Below, in pieces: positions 4,299 through 17,044 of a stretch of 64,000 nucleotides of DNA. The position numbers and the translations under genes were made by a program. The stretch lies in the UHGV virus genome UHGV-0073881; one strand, 5' to 3'. Each line of letters begins with the position of its first letter. Positions within the stretch are counted from its first letter, which is position 1. This DNA comes from a virus. The notes below the pieces were generated by a model. The model saw only the letters and a program-made list of their open reading frames with translations. It was not told the origin of the DNA and did no database searches.

Positions 4299-4696
4299 GA
4301 CTCTTAAACAGACACAGCTTTGTAGTTAAACGCAAAGTATCTGAAGACGGCTATTACAATAACGATGGTGATTGGATTGCTTCTCAAGATATTGTTGAGG
4401 TAAACTGCAAAGGTAATATTCAACCTTATATTAAGGGTTCTGTAAAGAATGGTACACAGATTGTTTTACCTGAAGGTATCAGACTGACAGATACAAGAAT
4501 CCTTTTCACTGTAGCTGAGTTAAGAACGTCAGATGACGTTGATTGGACTGAGGCTGATATTGTTATGATTAAAGGACACGAATACGAAGTCTTTATGACA
4601 ATGGATTGGTCAGAACAGTTAGCTCACACATCCCATTATGAATATATCATCATTAGAAGGGATAAGATGAATGCAGTTAGAAACAGCAGAACTTGA
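4295..4696 (+). CDS. hypothetical neck or tail completion protein
   Basis: 133-aa ORF, 4-nt overlap with upstream gene. Confidence 0.4.
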   Translation: MRLLNRHSFVVKRKVSEDGYYNNDGDWIASQDIVEVNCKGNIQPYIKGSVKNGTQIVLPEGIRLTDTRILFTVAELRTSDDVDWTEADIVMIKGHEYEVFMTMDWSEQLAHTSHYEYIIIRRDKMNAVRNSRT

Positions 4697-5270
4697 GAAA
4701 GGGATTGTCAGAACTTTGGTTGATGTTATTGGTCACCGTCTAGCACGAGATAAGAATAACAGACCAAACGTTATCAGGGCATACCCATCTGACAACTCAA
4801 ATGATAAAGGTCTAAAACCTGACCAGCCATTTATTACAGTTTACTGTCAAGATGCTACAACGCCTTATGGGTGGGTACTTGATAAATTCGTGGAAGATGA
4901 TGTAGTTTGTTATAGAATTGCTTTTCAGATTCCAGTGTTAATTACTGTGAATGGTAAAGGTGCTCATAGTATTATGCTAGAGCTAAAACAGAGATTAGAG
5001 ATGAGTTCCACAAGGGATTTATTAGCTGAGGAAACAGGAGCATCTGTTCTTGATACCGGAGCTATCCCAAATGATTACACTTATCTTAATACAGACTTTG
5101 AAAATTCTGCACCTCTTGTTGTAACACTCGTAAAAAATTCAGTATTAAAAGATGAACGTGGAAGTATTATTGAACGTGTCATTGTTGATGGTGAGTTAGT
5201 TTATGAGGAAGGACAGGAGCCACCAGAATATACTATCCATCTAGATGTAGACTCCAAAGGGGTAAAATAA
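4671..5270 (+). CDS. hypothetical tail completion protein
   Basis: 199-aa ORF immediately upstream of the sheath gene. Confidence 0.4.
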   Translation: MQLETAELEKGIVRTLVDVIGHRLARDKNNRPNVIRAYPSDNSNDKGLKPDQPFITVYCQDATTPYGWVLDKFVEDDVVCYRIAFQIPVLITVNGKGAHSIMLELKQRLEMSSTRDLLAEETGASVLDTGAIPNDYTYLNTDFENSAPLVVTLVKNSVLKDERGSIIERVIVDGELVYEEGQEPPEYTIHLDVDSKGVK

Positions 5271-6623
5271 ATGTGGAATCCAATTGTTAATGTAGATATT
5301 ACATTGAACACAGCAGGGACTACGAGAGAAGGTTTTGGACTGCCATTATTCTTAGCTTCAACAGATAACTTTGAAGAAAGAATTCGTGGTTATACTTCAC
5401 TAACTGAAGTTGCCGAAGACTTTGATGAAAGTTCTGCTGCATACAAAGCTGCAAAACAGCTATGGAGTCAGACTCCAAAAGTAACTCAACTTTATATTGG
5501 TAGACGTTCTATGCAGTATACCGTTGCTGTTCCTGATGCCGTTGCTGAGAGCACAGAATACTCTCTTACAGTTGCTGTAGGTGGTGGTGTATCTCAGCCA
5601 TTCCAGTACACAGCTAAGGCCGATGATACAGCCCTGATTGTTCTGAATGAATTTAAAACTCAGATTGAAGCAAGCCCTGCTGTTAAAGATGATGTTCAGG
5701 TTAATGTAACAGGTGCTGGTGACTCAGCTACAATGATTATCTCCAAAGCAGGTGATAATGATTTCGTAAAAGTTACCACAACTGGTAAGACTCTTTCAAT
5801 CTCTTCTACGACTGCTGACAGTGCATCAACTGCTCTCTCTGCAATTGAAACGTACTCAACAGATTGGTACTTCATTGCAACAGAAGACAGAACTTCACAG
5901 TTTGTCTTGGCAATGGCATCTGAAATTCAGGCTCGTAAGAAGATTTTCTTCACAGCTAACTCTGATGTGAAAGCTCTACAGGGAACCGACCTAGCTTCTG
6001 CTACAGACGTACCAGCACAGCTTGCTAAATCCAAGTACACTCGTACAGTTTGCTTGTGGCATCACACTGCAAGATACGACTACCCAGAAATGGCTTACAT
6101 TGCTTACGGTGCTCCATATGACGCAGGTTCCATTGCTTGGGGTAACGCTCAGTTGACGGGTGTTGAAACATCTTATCAGCCAGCTAACAAGAGACCTCTG
6201 ACAAGCATTCAGAAATCTGCACTAGATGCACGTAGCTGTAACTTCATTGACCTTGATGGTGGTGTTCCGGTTGTGCGTAGAGGTATCACTTCAGGTGGGG
6301 AATGGATTGATATCGTTCGTGGTGTCGATTGGCTGACTTCTGACTTGAAAACTTCTCTGAGAGACTTGCTAATTAATCAGAAGGGTGGTAAGATTACTTA
6401 TGATGATACTGGTATTACTCGTATTCGTCAAGTCATTGAAACATCTCTTCAGAGAGCGGTTAACAGAAACTTTTTATCATCTTACACCGTTAATGTACCT
6501 AAAGCTTCTCAGGTTTCTTTAGCAGACAAGAAAGCACGTATCCTGAAAGATATTACCTTCCACGGTATTATCGCAGGTGCTATCTTGGATGTTGACCTGA
6601 AAGGTACAGTGGCTTACGAATAA
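5271..6623 (+). CDS. tail sheath protein
   Basis: 450-aa ORF directly followed by a 148-aa tube-sized ORF, a chaperone pair and the tape measure gene, the canonical contractile-tail order. Confidence 0.6.
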   Translation: MWNPIVNVDITLNTAGTTREGFGLPLFLASTDNFEERIRGYTSLTEVAEDFDESSAAYKAAKQLWSQTPKVTQLYIGRRSMQYTVAVPDAVAESTEYSLTVAVGGGVSQPFQYTAKADDTALIVLNEFKTQIEASPAVKDDVQVNVTGAGDSATMIISKAGDNDFVKVTTTGKTLSISSTTADSASTALSAIETYSTDWYFIATEDRTSQFVLAMASEIQARKKIFFTANSDVKALQGTDLASATDVPAQLAKSKYTRTVCLWHHTARYDYPEMAYIAYGAPYDAGSIAWGNAQLTGVETSYQPANKRPLTSIQKSALDARSCNFIDLDGGVPVVRRGITSGGEWIDIVRGVDWLTSDLKTSLRDLLINQKGGKITYDDTGITRIRQVIETSLQRAVNRNFLSSYTVNVPKASQVSLADKKARILKDITFHGIIAGAILDVDLKGTVAYE

Positions 6624-6638
6624 TAGGAGTACTTTGGA

Positions 6639-7085
6639 ATGGCTATGTATCAGCAATATTCCCCTAAAGACGTAGTTTGTAGCTGGAATGGTATTGCCAT
6701 CGAAGGCTTTGCTCCAGACTCTTTCCTACGCCTACAGAGAACATCACCACTTGTTACACCAGTTGTTGGTGCAGGTGGTCAGGTAGCTCTGACAAGAAAC
6801 GCAGATAAGACAGGCACTATTGAGATTGAGCTAATGCAGACCTCTCTATCTAACCAGATTCTTTCTGCGATTCAAGCTAAACAGGACGATATGGAACTTG
6901 AAGAAGATATCTCTTCTAACTTCGTAATCTATGACCCTTCGGGGTCTGTAATGGCAACTGGTATTAATGCTTGGTTGCAAGAACTTCCACAGGTTGAGTT
7001 AGGTCGTGACCAGAACTCTAAGACGTGGATTTTCGGATGCGAACGTTTAGACTATACTTCTACAGTACCAGCGTCAAGCGTTTAA
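6639..7085 (+). CDS. tail tube protein
   Basis: 148-aa ORF between sheath and chaperone genes; followed by a stem-loop terminator. Confidence 0.55.
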   Translation: MAMYQQYSPKDVVCSWNGIAIEGFAPDSFLRLQRTSPLVTPVVGAGGQVALTRNADKTGTIEIELMQTSLSNQILSAIQAKQDDMELEEDISSNFVIYDPSGSVMATGINAWLQELPQVELGRDQNSKTWIFGCERLDYTSTVPASSV

Positions 7086-7163: not shown

Positions 7164-7571
7164 ATGAAGACTCAAACCAAACACATTAATGGAAAGAAAG
7201 TAACTATTATTCTTTTAGGTGCAAGAGAAGGTATTAAAATGTCTATGAAGCTCGGTAAAGTAGTTGTACCGACATTTGCACAGATGCTTTCTAGTTTAAC
7301 TGGAAATAAAGAAGCTGAAGAAGCTCCGAAGGTTCCATTTAAAGAACTTGTAGAAGCTTGCTTTGACAGAATTGATGAGTTGGATATTGACTCAATGGCA
7401 GAATTACTATTTCAGGGGGCAACAGTTGATGACTTCCCACTGAAAGTTGACTCTTACTTCCAAGGAAACTACGGAGAATTTATTGACTTCTTAGCATTTG
7501 CTCTGGAGGCTAATTTCGGAAGTTTTTTCGAGGCAAGCATTTTCAAAAGCCTAACTTCTCAGGAAGCTTAA
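7164..7571 (+). CDS. tail assembly chaperone
   Basis: 135-aa acidic ORF immediately upstream of the tape measure gene; slippery heptamer T_TTT_TTC lies near its 3' end. Confidence 0.55.
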   Translation: MKTQTKHINGKKVTIILLGAREGIKMSMKLGKVVVPTFAQMLSSLTGNKEAEEAPKVPFKELVEACFDRIDELDIDSMAELLFQGATVDDFPLKVDSYFQGNYGEFIDFLAFALEANFGSFFEASIFKSLTSQEA

Positions 7572-7579
7572 GATATGCT

Positions 7580-7807
7580 ATGCAGACCCCACTGACTGAT
7601 GGGGCTGTAGAAGCAACTTATGAAGAAGCAGATGAGATGAAATTTGTGCTTGCTATTTACGGTATGGAAGGGTGCAAAGAAACACTTGACCAACTTTTCT
7701 CTATGTCCTTCACTGACCTACTATCATTACGTCAGTATCTGGAAATCCAGAGGTCATACAAAGAGGAAATTGCTTACAACGAACTTAGAAAGGCAGGTAA
7801 AATTTAA
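7580..7807 (+). CDS. tail assembly chaperone, -1 frame extension (probable frameshift product)
   Basis: the -1 frame opens at 7514 just upstream of slippery site 7523-7529 and runs to the tape measure start codon; an ATG at 7580 with AGGAAG upstream could also serve as an independent start. Confidence 0.4.
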   Translation: MQTPLTDGAVEATYEEADEMKFVLAIYGMEGCKETLDQLFSMSFTDLLSLRQYLEIQRSYKEEIAYNELRKAGKI

Positions 7808-10014
7808 TGGCACAATATACAGTTGATAGTTTTATTGTTGAGTTGGGCTTTAGTGAAAAGGTTGTGAAGGGTTTACAAAGAGTTGAAAAGATGGCTATGC
7901 AATCTGCACAACGAATTGAAAGAAACCTGAATAAAGCCTTTGCTGTGAAGCCAAATAAAAACTCTCAAGAAGCTTTAAACAGACTTGTTAAAAACGCTCA
8001 GACTGCTTCGGGCAGAATCAATAAAGCCCTGAACAACTCCCTTAACTTAGACTCCCAAGGTGCAAAGTCTCTGAAGAAATTAGAGACACAAGGTAAGAAG
8101 ACTGCCAAAGAAATTAATAAGGCTCTAAGACAGGCTATGAATGTTGATGGTAAAGTCAAGATTCGTGGTGTTGGTAGAGGCCGTGGTAATTCTAATCCTC
8201 CAATTGGTGGAGGTTCACCAAGAGTTAGACCTGATATTGCTCAGAGACAAATGGAAAGAATGTTTAATAACAATTTCTACTCTGGCCTTACTCGTCGTCT
8301 TGAAACTATTGGTGGACAGGGTAACCAAATGGCTGCTTCTTTCAGAGGCAACTTGCAAGGAATCTATAACAAGTATAAAGGGAGTGGTAAGGTTGGTGAA
8401 TATGAGATGGAAGTTAAAAAACTCATTGACACAACCAAAAGATGGGTAATTGCAGAAAATGCTAGACTTAAGGCAGTCAAAGAATCAGCATGGCTACAGG
8501 ATAGAGCAAACTCTTCACTAAGACAACTAGTAGGTGGTTTTGTTTCTGCATACGCTATGTTAGAATTGGCTCAGAAGACTATTGATGCAGGTGTTAAAAG
8601 ACAATCTGCACAGTTAGCTTCTACGGCAATCTTTGGAGCAGATACACAGCAAGCTAGAATGTTCGCTGCATCGTTCGCTCACCAGATTGGACAGAACTAC
8701 ACAGACACTATGAAGCAGTATTCAAACTTTGCTGCTGGTGCTCAACCAACACTTGGTTTCCAAGGTACTCAAGAGTTCTATAAGAATGCTGCTATGTTTG
8801 CCCGTATTAGAGGGGCATCTGACGAAGACCTGAAAGGTATCATGGTTGCTTTCCAACAGATGGCTTCTAAGGGTAAGATTCAGGCTGAAGAACTTCGTGG
8901 ACAGTTAGGTGACCGTTTAGCTGGTGCTGTACAACTGTTTGCTGACGCGATTGGTAAGACCCCACAGGAACTGGATAAACTGATGAAGGATGGTAAACTT
9001 CTTGCTAAAGACGTTCTTCCTCAAGTTTCTGAGAAGATGAGAGAGTTAGTAGAAGCAGCAGGTGGTATGAATGCCGTGTCTAAGCAGACAGCTACTTCTA
9101 TGGGTCAAGCAAAAGCTATGTGGGACAATACCCTCGTAGCACTGTTTAACAACTCTAGTGAAGGTATTTCACAGTTGTCTAACTCAATTTCAATGTTCTT
9201 ACAAGGTTCCCTTGGTACTGCTGAAGCTTTAGGTACTGGTATTGGATACCTGTTAAAAGGTGCTGGAAACTTACTTGATTTCATTACAGACATTATGTAT
9301 AGAATCTCTGGGCTGTACTACCTATCTATGGGTTATTACAACGAATTAGATGCTAGTCAACAGAAACTTGTAAAAGAAGCTTCTGAGTTCCTTGCAACAG
9401 TTATTGCTATTGGTGCTGCTGTAGCAACGGTCGCTAAAGTGGCGAAGCTTATCACTGGATTCTTTGATACAGCAATTGTACGAAAGATTCTTCAGAGATT
9501 TGGCATTGAGGTGGCTGAGAAAGTTGCACCAAGAGCAGCTCCATTTTTAATGCCACCTCAAGTAAAGGTGGCCTTGGCAACAATTGCACTATCTAGGTCT
9601 TCTGACCCTAATGCTGGAAAGAGATACAATGAGGTCACTCTTCCAAAACCTTTTGAAGATGCTGTATCAAGTGTTACCAACGCTAAACGCCCAATGTTCT
9701 TTGACCAGAATGGACAGTTGCAGTTTGCACAATATACGACTGACACTGATGGTAACATCCAAAGAGTTGATAATGGTATGTCAAATTGGGATATCATTAT
9801 GAACAACTTGTCAGAGTCTTTAAACAACTTTGCAAACAAGTTCAATCAGACCCCTATGATGATGACACCTTCTGGATTACCTATGCAAACTAAGCAGACT
9901 CTTAATGTCACGTTTAACCTTGATGGTAACCAGATTGCTACTAAGATGGTCGATATTACTAACAAGAACCAAGAAGATATTTTGTTAAACTCAGCTTACC
10001 CAGAGGATAATTAA
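7807..10014 (+). CDS. tail tape measure protein
   Basis: 735-aa ORF after the chaperone pair; long helical, A/Q/K-rich sequence with a glycine-rich patch. Confidence 0.75.
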
Positions 10015-10825
10015 TGTTATGGGATAACAACATGCAAATCAAGTACTCTGGAAAGGATGGTATTTATTTCCATCTTAGAGATAATGTAGACGCATTCTTG
10101 ACATTATCTGCAACAGAGCAAATGGAGTATGATTCACCTATGTTGGTGACTACTCAAGCAATGCAAAGTGGTCAGACTATTACTGACAACGTGCAACGTT
10201 CCCCTAAGACAATTTCTATTTCTGGTGTTGTGGTAGTTGGCTACGAAGGTAGCCTTCTACGTACTCGTCAAGGCCAATTAGTAGAAAACTTTATTTCAAC
10301 TGTAGAGACTTGGAGAGACCAGAAGCAAATTATTTCAATCGTCTGTAAAGATGGTATTAAGATTGACGACGCTGTAATTACCCAATTTAAAGCTTCTAAA
10401 GAACACACAATTTCTAATGGTCTTCGTATTCAGATGACCTTCCAAGAAATTAACTTTAAAGCCGTTGTAGGGACTACAGATGTTAGTGCAGCAACTGGTA
10501 AAACATCCACAACTAAAGATGACGGTGTAACTTCTAAAAAGAACACTGGTAATACTACAACATCTCTTGGAAGTGGTAAATTGAATTGTCAATTGCTTTA
10601 TGATATCCAAGCAAGTGGTGTGAGGATTCTTTCTAGTGCAGAGCAAAAAGCACTAGGTAACTGTGGTTTATCTGCAAACACTAATAAAGGTGTAACCACA
10701 TTTAGTGACAAAGCTAATGCTGGAGCAGCTAATGCAATCAGACAAACCTCAGCCAACCAATCAGCAGGTAAAGGGAATGCTTTACAGACTCATTCAGTAA
10801 ATCCTAACAAGAAAGGAAATTATTA

Positions 10826-10826
<1 letters not shown>
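10014..10826 (+). CDS. tail/baseplate protein
   Basis: 270-aa ORF, start overlaps the tape measure stop; first gene of the baseplate block. Confidence 0.4.
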
Positions 10827-12143
<1,317 letters not shown>

Positions 12144-12144
<1 letters not shown>

Positions 12145-12785
12145 TGAAATCCCCTGTAACAAGAATGTCAGGGTACGTTACTGAGTGTTTGGATGAATTT
12201 AAAAAGGAACTCTACACTGGTTTACCAGCTATTATTGTTTCCTATGATGCTAAAACACAATCTGCAACGGTAAGGCCATTATATTCTATTGATGGTCTTC
12301 CAATGCCAGAGATTACAGGTGTTCCAGTTCAGTTCCCTAGTGGTGGTGGAGCATCTTTAACGTTCCCTGTAAAGACAAATGACAGATGCTGGTTAGCATT
12401 CTCTATGCTTCCACTTGATGACTATGTAGTTAATGACAAGAACGTACAGATGGAAACAAATCTAAGAAGAACACATGATATGACTGACTGTGTAGCTTTT
12501 GTAGGTATCTGTACAAGAACTCAGAACTTTAATCCTGACCCAACAGCAGTCAGATTACACTACGGAGATTCAGTATTAAGAATCACTGATGATGGTAATT
12601 TTTGGTTCACTGGTGATGTTCATATTTCTAAGAATCTTTACGTTGAAGAAGATGTAATTGCCAAAGGTGAAGTTCATGGTTCAGATTTTGTCAGTGATAC
12701 TACAGGTGTTAGTTTCAATGAGCATAACCACCATTATTACTGGACTGACGGTGGCGGTGAAGCTGATACAACAGAGGCACAATAA
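12144..12785 (+). CDS. baseplate spike protein (gpV-like)
   Basis: 213-aa ORF upstream of a gpW-sized ORF and a J-like ORF; synteny with P2/Mu baseplates. Confidence 0.45.
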
Positions 12786-13201
12786 TGAAGACAGATTTTG
12801 CAATTAACCTTGGTGGAGACTACGTAGCTAAAATGGGTTCAGACTCTGTTTACGTAGCCCACGGAGACTTAAAAATTATTGGTAACCAAATTAGAATTAT
12901 CCCTGAAGATGATAAAGCTACACAGGTTGCACAAAGATTACATATTAGATGTTTACTAAGGGCTGGAGAAGTATTCTTTAATACGTCTGCTGGATTCCCT
13001 TATTTGCAACTTGCTAAGTTCAAACAGAGAACATCAATTTTTGACAACTATATGAAAGGCTATCTTGTTGAAACGAGAGATGTGACAAACATCTACAATT
13101 ATTCTTCAACAATCGATAGTGCCATGAGAAAAGTTTCAGTTAGCTTTAGTGCAACTACAACTGCTGATACTGTAGAAATTAATGAAGAGGTAAACATTTA
13201 A
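12785..13201 (+). CDS. baseplate wedge protein (gpW/gp25-like)
   Basis: 138-aa ORF between spike-like and J-like ORFs. Confidence 0.45.
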
Positions 13202-15835: not shown

Positions 15836-17044
15836 ATGGCAGTTGGTGAAATTCAAATTAGTGCATTACCTCAAGCCTCTCTACCAATCGGGCTTAGTGA
15901 TATTTTTCACTTGAAGCAGGGTATTGAGGATAAAAGGTGTACACTAGAGCAATTACTTGCTCCACACGCATCTTTAAAGAATAACCCACACGAAGTTACA
16001 AAAAATCAGGTTGGTTTGAGTAGTGTTATTAACGCACTCCAATTAGTTGCTGCTAATAACTTGTCAGATGTTGTTAATGTTCAGGAAGCAAGAGCAAACT
16101 TAGGAATCCTTTCAAGTGACCAAGTTAATGCTCTTATTCAGACTCACATTGATGACAAGAATAACCCTCACAATACTACGAAGGGTCAAGTTGGATTAGG
16201 TAACCTCCAGAACTGGACATACTCCAATTCATACTCTGAAGATGCTGACAAATATGCTACAGCAAGGGCTGTAAACGCACTGTACAGGGCTATTCAGAAT
16301 AGTTACCCGATTGGTTCTATTCACCTGACTGTGAACCCTGCAAACCCCACTACGTACCTTCTTTGTGGGGGTACTTGGGAACTTGTCTCTAAAGGTAGAG
16401 CACTTGTAGGTTATGATACAGATTCCAGACCAGTTGATTCAACATTTGGTAGTCAGAATGTGACATTGAACAGTAACCACTTACCTGCTCACAGCCACTC
16501 AATTTACCTAACTGGTGGTACTCACAAGCATGGTAATAGTGTTTCTGTATCAAGCTTTGACTACGGAACAAGAACTACAAGTGGTTTTGACTATGGCACA
16601 AAGGCTACTAGTGGTTTTGACTATGGAAGCAAATCAACGACTCCATTTGATTATGGAAACAAATCTACGGATTATAGTGGCGACCATACCCATACGATTC
16701 CAGATTTTCCTGCTTATGAATGGAAAAATGCCACCGACAATGGTCGTTACAGAATGGGGATTAACACTAGAGATGGGGTAACAGGCTCATCCGGGAATCA
16801 CGCGCATACAGTCTATATTGGTGCTCATAGCCATTCTGTGTATATCGGTGCTCACAACCACACACTTGATATCGGTGCTCACAACCATACTTTGGCAATT
16901 GGTGCTCACACACATACAGTAACTGTAGACATTGAAGATGCTGACCATACACACTCTGGTACAACTGGTAACACTGGTAGTGGACAAGCTTTTAGTGTGG
17001 AGCAACCTTCCTATGTAGTTTACATCTGGAAGAGAGTAGCTTAA
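15836..17044 (+). CDS. tail fibre protein with His-x-His repeat tip
   Basis: 402 aa; N-terminal repeated KNNPH..TK.QVGL motif; four decapeptide repeats of the form xFDYGxxxTx; C-terminal IGAH-x-H-T repeats (GAHSHSVYIGAHNHTLDIGAHNHTLAIGAHTHT). Confidence 0.65.
   Translation: MAVGEIQISALPQASLPIGLSDIFHLKQGIEDKRCTLEQLLAPHASLKNNPHEVTKNQVGLSSVINALQLVAANNLSDVVNVQEARANLGILSSDQVNALIQTHIDDKNNPHNTTKGQVGLGNLQNWTYSNSYSEDADKYATARAVNALYRAIQNSYPIGSIHLTVNPANPTTYLLCGGTWELVSKGRALVGYDTDSRPVDSTFGSQNVTLNSNHLPAHSHSIYLTGGTHKHGNSVSVSSFDYGTRTTSGFDYGTKATSGFDYGSKSTTPFDYGNKSTDYSGDHTHTIPDFPAYEWKNATDNGRYRMGINTRDGVTGSSGNHAHTVYIGAHSHSVYIGAHNHTLDIGAHNHTLAIGAHTHTVTVDIEDADHTHSGTTGNTGSGQAFSVEQPSYVVYIWKRVA
16550..16925 (+). repeat. 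in-frame tandem repeats in the fibre gene (30-nt FDYG units and 27-nt GAH-x-H units)
   Basis: near-identical nucleotide units repeated about 4 times each, visible directly in the sequence. Confidence 0.7.

Follow-up and report, generated by a model that had tools for sequence, protein, structure and literature searches.

Introduction

The tape measure proteins (TMPs) of phages lambda (gpH), T4 (gp29) and TP901-1 act on a ruler principle, in which the tail scales at ~0.145-0.15 nm per TMP residue. Genes for these classical rulers follow a G/GT chaperone pair, and the C-terminus of the protein is located at the tail tip or hub; the classical studies of ruler proteins are reportedly those of Katsura & Hendrix 1984 and Abuladze et al. 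1994. Deletions within the TMP of TP901-1 shorten its tail linearly, by 0.145 nm per amino acid, and the same paper gives Katsura's value for lambda as 0.15 nm per amino acid (PMC5099701); the myovirus precedent for such a ruler is T4 gp29 (Abuladze 1994, cited in PMC13585406). Our literature search for a stated "1.5 Å per residue" rule returned none, with Mahony 2016 (PMC5099701) documenting the rule instead, and a paper on homorepeats and TMPs gives no nm-per-residue figure for myoviruses. Likewise, we found in the literature no mutational test of TMP ruler function in any phage of the Ounavirinae.

Two members of this group have been characterized structurally. Cryo-EM of Escherichia phage Bas63, a Felixounavirus, reveals 26 disks with a rise of 38.1 Å and a TMP of 742 residues, of which only the C-terminal 25 could be built; these abut the puncture apparatus inside the hub, and further density extends along the tube lumen (PMC12609058). 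The whole tail of Shigella phage Sf14, a Mooglevirus, has also been solved by cryo-EM, with a rise of 37.06 Å, and its TMP, gp43, was found in virions by mass spectrometry (PMC11821841).

Here we examine a tape measure gene at 7807..10014 (+ strand) in a 64,000-nucleotide stretch of the virus genome UHGV-0073881, hereafter the window. The initial annotation had multiplied the length of this protein by 0.15 nm per residue of extended helix, giving a tail of roughly 110 nm, and had regarded that value as short for a siphovirus and typical of a contractile-tailed phage of this genome size.

Results

The 735-residue ORF matches structurally characterized tape measure proteins

The ORF at 7807..10014 opens with an ATG and comprises 735 codons and a stop in the ORF listing with its translation. 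The ATG overlaps the stop codon of the upstream chaperone ORF, with one A shared (TAATG, 7805-7809), and the N-terminus that it specifies, MAQYTVDSF..., is invariant in an alignment of 23 TMP homologues, so both the start codon and the length of 735 residues are reliable. A profile search with the full protein returns PHROG 4036, "tail length tape measure protein", with E = 0 and 1399 bits, residues 1-734 of 735 aligning with positions 1-748 of 749, and Pfam TMP_3 (PF20155) is found at residues 283-443 with 60.1 bits, against a gathering cut-off of 41 bits. The best match to a solved structure is PDB 9ndy_F, "Tape measure protein (gp017)", a 742-residue chain that aligns at residues 1-741 with residues 1-734 of our protein (1277 bits); chain F of 9ndy is TMP gp17 of Bas63 (PMC12609058). 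The identical 735-residue protein (100%) is present in public data as "MAG TPA: tail tape measure [Caudoviricetes sp.]", on contigs of up to 89,352 bp.

Judged from these alignments, the ORF is a genuine gene and no chance reading frame, and its predicted product is certainly a tape measure protein. The gene identity given in the initial annotation is thus borne out by PHROG 4036, Pfam TMP_3 and the Bas63 TMP, and the 735-residue length by the invariant N-terminus. This family has already been sequenced hundreds of times, and nothing in this main finding is new.

The gene lies in a complete contractile tail module

We find that the TMP gene directly follows a chaperone pair and precedes the tube initiator and hub, which is the canonical order, in a run of genes that all lie on the + strand. 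The module begins with a tail terminator (4671..5270), recognized as PF23961 (Phage_tail_terminator_9) by a precomputed match on an identical gene of contig L005; PHROG 4082, a profile with no assigned function, covers this gene over its full length. Next to it is a 450-residue tail sheath protein (5271..6623), which matches Pfam DUF3383 (1.9e-22) and PHROG 205, "tail sheath" (2.6e-119), and over its full length the sheath of Sf14 (9c39_H, 1.3e-266) and a 450-residue "Structural protein" (9mt4_Q, 1.1e-261). We take 9mt4_Q to be the Bas63 sheath, gp13, which is also of 450 residues. The tail tube protein of 148 residues (6639..7085) carries Pfam PF11681 (KPP10_Orf10 / Phage_Tube_PhiTE) and matches PHROG 280, and its homologue Sf14 gp40 was modelled as the tube (PMC11821841).

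Downstream of the TMP gene, a Dit-like tube initiator (10014..10826) is identified by Pfam Dit_like (3.2e-19) and as a homologue of Bas63 gp18 and Sf14 gp44, its role being taken from the two cryo-EM papers (PMC12609058, PMC11821841). The tube initiator has been mislabelled as an endolysin. It is followed by a small baseplate protein like the Pam3 gp18 plug (10826..11167; Pfam PF22479, 1.3e-16), a central baseplate hub (11167..12144; PHROG 196, "baseplate hub", 1.2e-82) that corresponds in gene order to Sf14 gp46, named there as the central hub and a homologue of Mu gp44 (PMC11821841), and a puncture apparatus or central needle (12144..12785; Pfam PF18352, 2.7e-19) that corresponds in gene order to Sf14 gp47, the central needle (PMC11821841). 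A sheath initiator (12785..13201), alternatively annotated as a baseplate wedge subunit, is detected by PF10934 (Sheath_initiator) on the identical gene of contig L005 and by PHROG 120 (2.3e-28). With sheath, tube, terminator and sheath initiator genes all surrounding the TMP gene, the contractile tail assumed in the initial annotation is well founded. Scans for tRNAs and against Rfam over the whole 64-kb window gave no matches.

The chaperone pair probably includes a frameshift fusion

The first chaperone ORF (7164..7571) encodes the 135-residue "G" form, with matches to Pfam Phage_TAC_15 (4.3e-22) and PHROG 1613 (1.3e-48). Near its 3' end lies the slippery heptamer T_TTT_TTC (7523..7529, + strand), in frame and in register for a programmed -1 frameshift; from 7514 onwards, no stop codon interrupts the -1 frame until 7805-7807. 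This -1 frame extension (7514..7807) constitutes the "T" part, a match to PHROG 4963, "tail assembly chaperone" (6.7e-51), and can alternatively be called as an ORF of its own of 75 residues (7580-7807). A heptamer at the equivalent site and an open -1 frame are also present in pEC-M719-6WT.1, Sf14, RPN213 and Erwinia phage phiEa104, the last a distant relative with a TMP identity of 39%. The annotated downstream chaperone ORF of phiEa104 has only 38 codons, because it lacks an early ATG. This conservation points to a canonical G/GT pair, in which a -1 frameshift would probably yield a G-T fusion, and public records list the pair as two separate genes. Mass spectrometry of Sf14 detected gp42, the downstream ORF, and not gp41, which fits a fusion and independent translation alike (PMC11821841).

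The window derives from a Felix O1/Moogle-like myovirus

Genome-level nucleotide comparison covered positions 1-25000 of the window, which are 94.1% identical over 93% to Escherichia phage pEC-M719-6WT.1 (OQ845957), and ~85% identical over 91-92% to Citrobacter phages Moogle, Mijalis and HP1 and Shigella phage Silverhawkium. A nucleotide search with the TMP gene recovers 260 phage records, nearly all of them Felix O1- or Moogle-like, from Escherichia, Salmonella, Shigella and Citrobacter. These matches, together with the identical TMP on contigs approaching 90 kb, place the phage, as judged from its DNA, among the Ounavirinae as a Felix O1/Moogle-like myovirus with a genome of ~86-90 kb, in accord with the genome-size class that the earlier tail prediction had assumed.

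Of the genomes in the phage collection, that of pEC-M719-6WT.1 is the nearest, and it encodes chaperone proteins identical to those of the window; its TMP, in contrast, has 745 residues rather than 735 and is 87% identical at the protein level. Its nucleotide match to the TMP gene is split into two pieces that cover 88% of the gene, because the two genes differ in a variable cassette (described below), an instance of mosaicism. A literature search returned no mention of pEC-M719-6WT.1.

The predicted tail length agrees with measured relatives

The product of 735 residues and 0.15 nm is 110.25 nm, and we find that this agrees with tails measured by electron microscopy in Felixounavirus and with the disk count of Bas63, the check being one on relatives and not on the phage's own virions. 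Felix O1 has a tail of 17 x 113 nm and a head of 73 nm (PMC3185647); the extended tails of Eifel1 and Eifel2 measure 110.9 +/- 4.5 nm and 116.2 +/- 9.2 nm, respectively (PMC12892995); and that of vB_SflM_004 measures 107.2 +/- 6 nm extended and 50.2 nm contracted (PMC7925395). The tail of Myo-P293, whose paper repeatedly cites Felix O1, is ~100 nm (PMC13033461), and a paper on the MT83 cocktail gives a pooled range of 101-135 nm for myovirus tails. A measured Mooglevirus tail was also sought in the literature, where the papers on HP1 and ESh19 give no numbers.

Of all these sources, the Bas63 structure tells us most. Its helical part alone, with the baseplate extra, spans 26 x 3.81 nm = 99 nm (96 nm at the Sf14 rise), and adding the tube-initiator ring and the terminator ring brings the total to ~107 nm, which corresponds to 0.144 nm for each residue of the TMP. 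This is essentially equal to the TP901-1 and lambda values of 0.145 and 0.15, so the predicted 110 nm is correct to within the measurement error of negative stain. The implied length is that of Felix O1, known for decades.

Two reports conflict with these values, giving a tail of 90.7 nm and a head of 58 nm for the Suspvirus phages KMM2 and KMM4, and a tail of ~169 nm and a head of 44 nm for the Mooglevirus Henu12. Since these heads are far under the 73-78 nm of Felix O1 and Eifel1/2 (PMC3185647, PMC12892995), we treat the outlying tails as measurement problems, and list them as evidence against the predicted length; the small heads suggest an error of calibration or measurement.

The ruler relation is empirical

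The rationale given for 0.15 nm per residue, that of an extended helix, fares less well than the length itself: the empirical length holds, but the protein is not predicted to be one continuous helix, with ~71% helix in a low-confidence model. An AlphaFold2 model computed from the 23-sequence alignment has a mean pLDDT of 35.3 and a pTM of 0.21, so that its secondary structure is indicative only; we discarded the three-dimensional model on account of this mean pLDDT and kept the secondary-structure string alone, with caution. DSSP analysis of this low-confidence model assigns 519 residues to helix, concentrated in residues 1-111 and 144-565 (~86% helix), and a mixed alpha/beta structure to the C-terminal ~110 residues. 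At 0.15 nm each, the 519 helical residues span only 78 nm, and the whole-protein product is therefore not physically literal. Residues x 0.15 nm is best regarded as an empirical rule, whose accuracy in this phage would be partly fortuitous on the modelled secondary structure.

Other systems present similar departures from a literal ruler. In TP901-1, ~127 TMP residues do not count towards length, and the naive product overshoots by ~20% (937 residues x 0.15 nm = 140 nm, versus 118 nm measured, where 937 is the sum of two figures in that paper; PMC5099701). In Bas63, the density of the TMP has three-fold symmetry in the baseplate and hub but six-fold symmetry in the tube, which the authors relate to a fold-back model (PMC12609058); this switch from C3 to C6 may mean that some TMP chains fold back.

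TMP length is conserved apart from two variable sites

We find that 119 of the best 120 TMP homologues in a collection of 5.8 billion proteins have 735-745 residues. The single exception among them, an entry of 709 residues with 96% query coverage, lacks the N-terminus and probably reflects a later start codon call. The 735-residue class, which includes the window, is the commonest (44 of the best 120). The 10-residue spread corresponds to 1.5 nm, or 0.4 disk, and one disk number is therefore expected across the group. This narrow range, together with the clustering of measured tails in the subfamily at 107-116 nm, lends indirect support to a dependence of tail length on TMP length.

Length varies at two sites only. 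One is a Gly/Arg/Pro-rich linker of 32 residues (residues 112-143; 8140..8235, + strand), coil in the low-confidence model, where the Gly-rich stretch carries indels of 1-2 residues; the other is a cassette at residues 545-600 (9439..9606, + strand), of type A1 in the window. Between these sites lies the conserved TMP_3 core (residues 283-443; 8653..9135, + strand), which can also be aligned with more distant TMPs, from phages of Pseudomonas, Vibrio and Rheinheimera. Tandem repeats were sought in the TMP gene and none was detected, unlike in the TMP of TP901-1.

The cassette occurs in three versions, A (55-56 residues, in TMPs of 735-737), B (62 residues, in TMPs of 741-743) and C (64 residues, in TMPs of 743-745), which explain nearly all of the length classes from 735 to 745 residues. 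The versions are ~33% identical to each other, versus 87-93% for their flanks. Cassette type is independent of flank similarity and of genus: the window carries type A, Bas63 (Felixounavirus) and HP1 (Moogle-like) carry type B, and Sf14 and pEC-M719-6WT.1 carry type C. A reading of the cassettes as Felix-type versus Moogle-type was dropped, since Bas63, a Felixounavirus, carries the supposed Moogle-like version.

The protein has a single strongly hydrophobic segment (residues 521-553; 9367..9465, + strand), with a Kyte-Doolittle maximum of 2.07 in a 19-residue window, which by analogy with other TMPs is a candidate membrane-inserting helix. The cassette, hydrophobic and rich in Ala and Gly, comes directly after this sole strongly hydrophobic helix, a position that fits a membrane-interacting region. 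It is conceivable, if rather doubtful, that the cassette serves in host interaction or counter-defence, for instance in the choice of an inner-membrane partner for DNA entry or in escape from TMP-targeting superinfection exclusion; a neutral spacer is the alternative. This three-way cassette is the only undescribed detail in our analysis, and a minor one.

Discussion

Our analysis points to a TMP of a Felix O1/Moogle-like (Ounavirinae) myovirus that very probably serves as the ruler for a tail of ~105-115 nm, like those of its relatives. What supports this reading is the identity of the gene, its place in the tail module, its homology to relatives examined by cryo-EM and the constancy of its length; how the protein acts as a ruler, where it is anchored and how many disks the tail has are points that we infer for this phage from its relatives and from general knowledge. 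Copies of the TMP, largely helical in the low-confidence model, would be held by the products of the chaperone genes immediately upstream. With their C-termini anchored in the baseplate hub, they would run along the lumen as hexamers of tube and sheath polymerize around them; once the growing tube arrives at the TMP N-terminus, the terminator would cap tube and sheath. About 26 sheath and tube disks of 3.7-3.8 nm would make a helical part of 96-99 nm, which the neck and baseplate elements would bring to ~105-115 nm by negative stain.

How far such a length can be trusted depends on the rule, which would fail if a non-helical or folded-back protein left the true tail at ~90 nm or at 150 nm or more. 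The low-confidence model, with its ~71% helix, 32-residue coil linker and mixed alpha/beta C-terminus, lends this some support, as do the C3-to-C6 switch in the Bas63 density, the ~127 residues of TP901-1 that add no length, and the outlying tails of 90.7 nm (KMM2/KMM4) and ~169 nm (Henu12). Against these stand four independent Felixounavirus tails of 107-116 nm, with TMP lengths near-identical at the level of the group, and the 26 disks of 3.81 nm counted by cryo-EM in Bas63; the sheath of the window is, moreover, near-identical to that of Sf14 and to the presumed Bas63 sheath, and the heads in the outlier papers, 58 and 44 nm versus 73-78 nm in Felixounavirus, argue against taking those tails at face value. 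On balance, we consider a tail so far from the prediction very unlikely. Still less room is left for a non-contractile siphovirus with an unusually short tail, which we regard as barely conceivable: the TMP_3 domain does occur in siphovirus TMPs as well (vB_SmaS_BCU1, Seifer and others), but the sheath gene alone already refutes this idea, a sheath initiator and a terminator are also present, all three nearly identical to proteins modelled in the contractile tails of Sf14 and Bas63, and the relative vB_SflM_004 has a documented contracted form of 50 nm.

A finer question is whether a 735-residue TMP specifies 25 disks rather than the 26 of its 742-745-residue relatives, given that tail length is quantized and that the protein is shorter by 7 residues than that of Bas63 and by 10 than those of Sf14 and pEC-M719-6WT.1. 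Those 7-10 residues, however, amount to 1.0-1.5 nm, less than half of a 3.7-3.8-nm disk, and they fall in the Ala/Gly-rich hydrophobic cassette and the Gly-rich linker, outside the long helices. The 735-residue class, which accounts for 44 of the best 120 homologues and is larger than any other, moreover includes ULIM9 and PHB11, which are of Felixounavirus type and belong to the genus of the 107-116-nm tails, a comparison made at the level of the genus. A loss of one disk is thus unlikely in our estimate, and a 26-disk tail of ~105-115 nm is the reading that we favor.

These results illustrate how, for an uncultured Felix O1/Moogle-like phage recovered from metagenomes, the TMP and relatives characterized by cryo-EM together allow the length of the tail to be read. 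They also provide a clean case of tight TMP length, with a 10-residue spread, less than half of a sheath disk, across one phage group, and two annotation points that can be reused for the group, namely the probable G/GT frameshift and the tube initiator mislabelled as an endolysin. Beyond correct annotation, their importance is slight.

Compared with known tape measure systems, lambda gpH, T4 gp29 and the TP901-1 TMP are absent from the matches of the searches run with the window TMP, and the closest counterparts are those of the Ounavirinae. Overall, the window resembles Moogle-like genomes more than it does Felix O1 or Bas63. The Sf14 TMP (gp43, FDI99_gp114) is 82% identical over its full length and is encoded in a gene order identical to that of the window; it differs in having 745 residues and a type C cassette, versus 735 and type A1. 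Bas63 (JohannRWettstein) gp17 is encoded at the corresponding place in an equivalent tail module and has 742 residues versus 735, with a type B rather than an A1 cassette at 545-600 and small indels in the Gly-rich linker between the two proteins. At the C-terminal 25 residues of the window TMP (9937..10011, + strand), the counterpart of the segment modelled in the Bas63 hub, 21 of the last 25 aligned residues are identical, as counted from the alignment.

A variable cassette within the tape measure protein

The tail's tape measure protein (TMP, 735 aa, plus strand, window positions 7807–10014) contains an internal cassette, residues 545–600 (9439–9606), that occurs in three divergent versions with only ~33% identity to one another. 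These versions occur shuffled across TMPs that share 87–93% identity in the flanks, and the version present determines the TMP length class, 735–737, 741–743 or 743–745 aa. We find that pEC-M719-6WT.1, the closest genome in the phage collection, matches only 88% of the TMP gene because its cassette differs.

Genes flanking the tape measure

Upstream of TMP lie two “tail assembly chaperone” ORFs (7164–7807), annotated in the public record as two independent genes. From their sequence, they look like a canonical G/GT pair that would be linked via a −1 frameshift at a T_TTT_TTC heptamer (7523–7529), which is conserved in the loci of four relatives (L001, 5717–5723; L002, 714–720; L003, 717–723; L004, 707–713). 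The second ORF of phiEa104, one of these relatives, lacks an early ATG, which favors frameshifting as the route of expression. The next gene after TMP (10014–10826) encodes a Dit-like tube initiator, the counterpart of Bas63 gp18 and Sf14 gp44. Its RPN213 homologue (L003, 3214–4011) carries the RefSeq label “endolysin”, as does PHROG 1517; the HP1 endolysin is described in the HP1 paper as adjoining a tail protein, a remark that may originate from the same mislabel.

Genome organization beyond the tail genes

Short imperfect tandem repeats are found within the shorter tail-fibre gene (15836–17044), with periods of 30 nt (2.6 copies, 16556–16633) and 27 nt (3.8 copies, 16815–16917). Both periods preserve the reading frame, a usual trait of repeats in fibre shafts. 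Coding changes strand at ~20100 and ~32000, running plus until ~20.1 kb, minus from 20.1 to 31.5 kb and plus once more from ~32.2 kb, with the sign of the GC skew flipping in step; these switch points mark where the structural module borders on the early or metabolic ones. A search of the whole 64-kb window (1–64000) returned neither tRNA genes nor Rfam families, whereas the relatives Felix O1, Sf14, Eifel1 and Henu12 encode 18–26 tRNAs each; the tRNA cluster must be located in the ~25 kb of the genome beyond the window.
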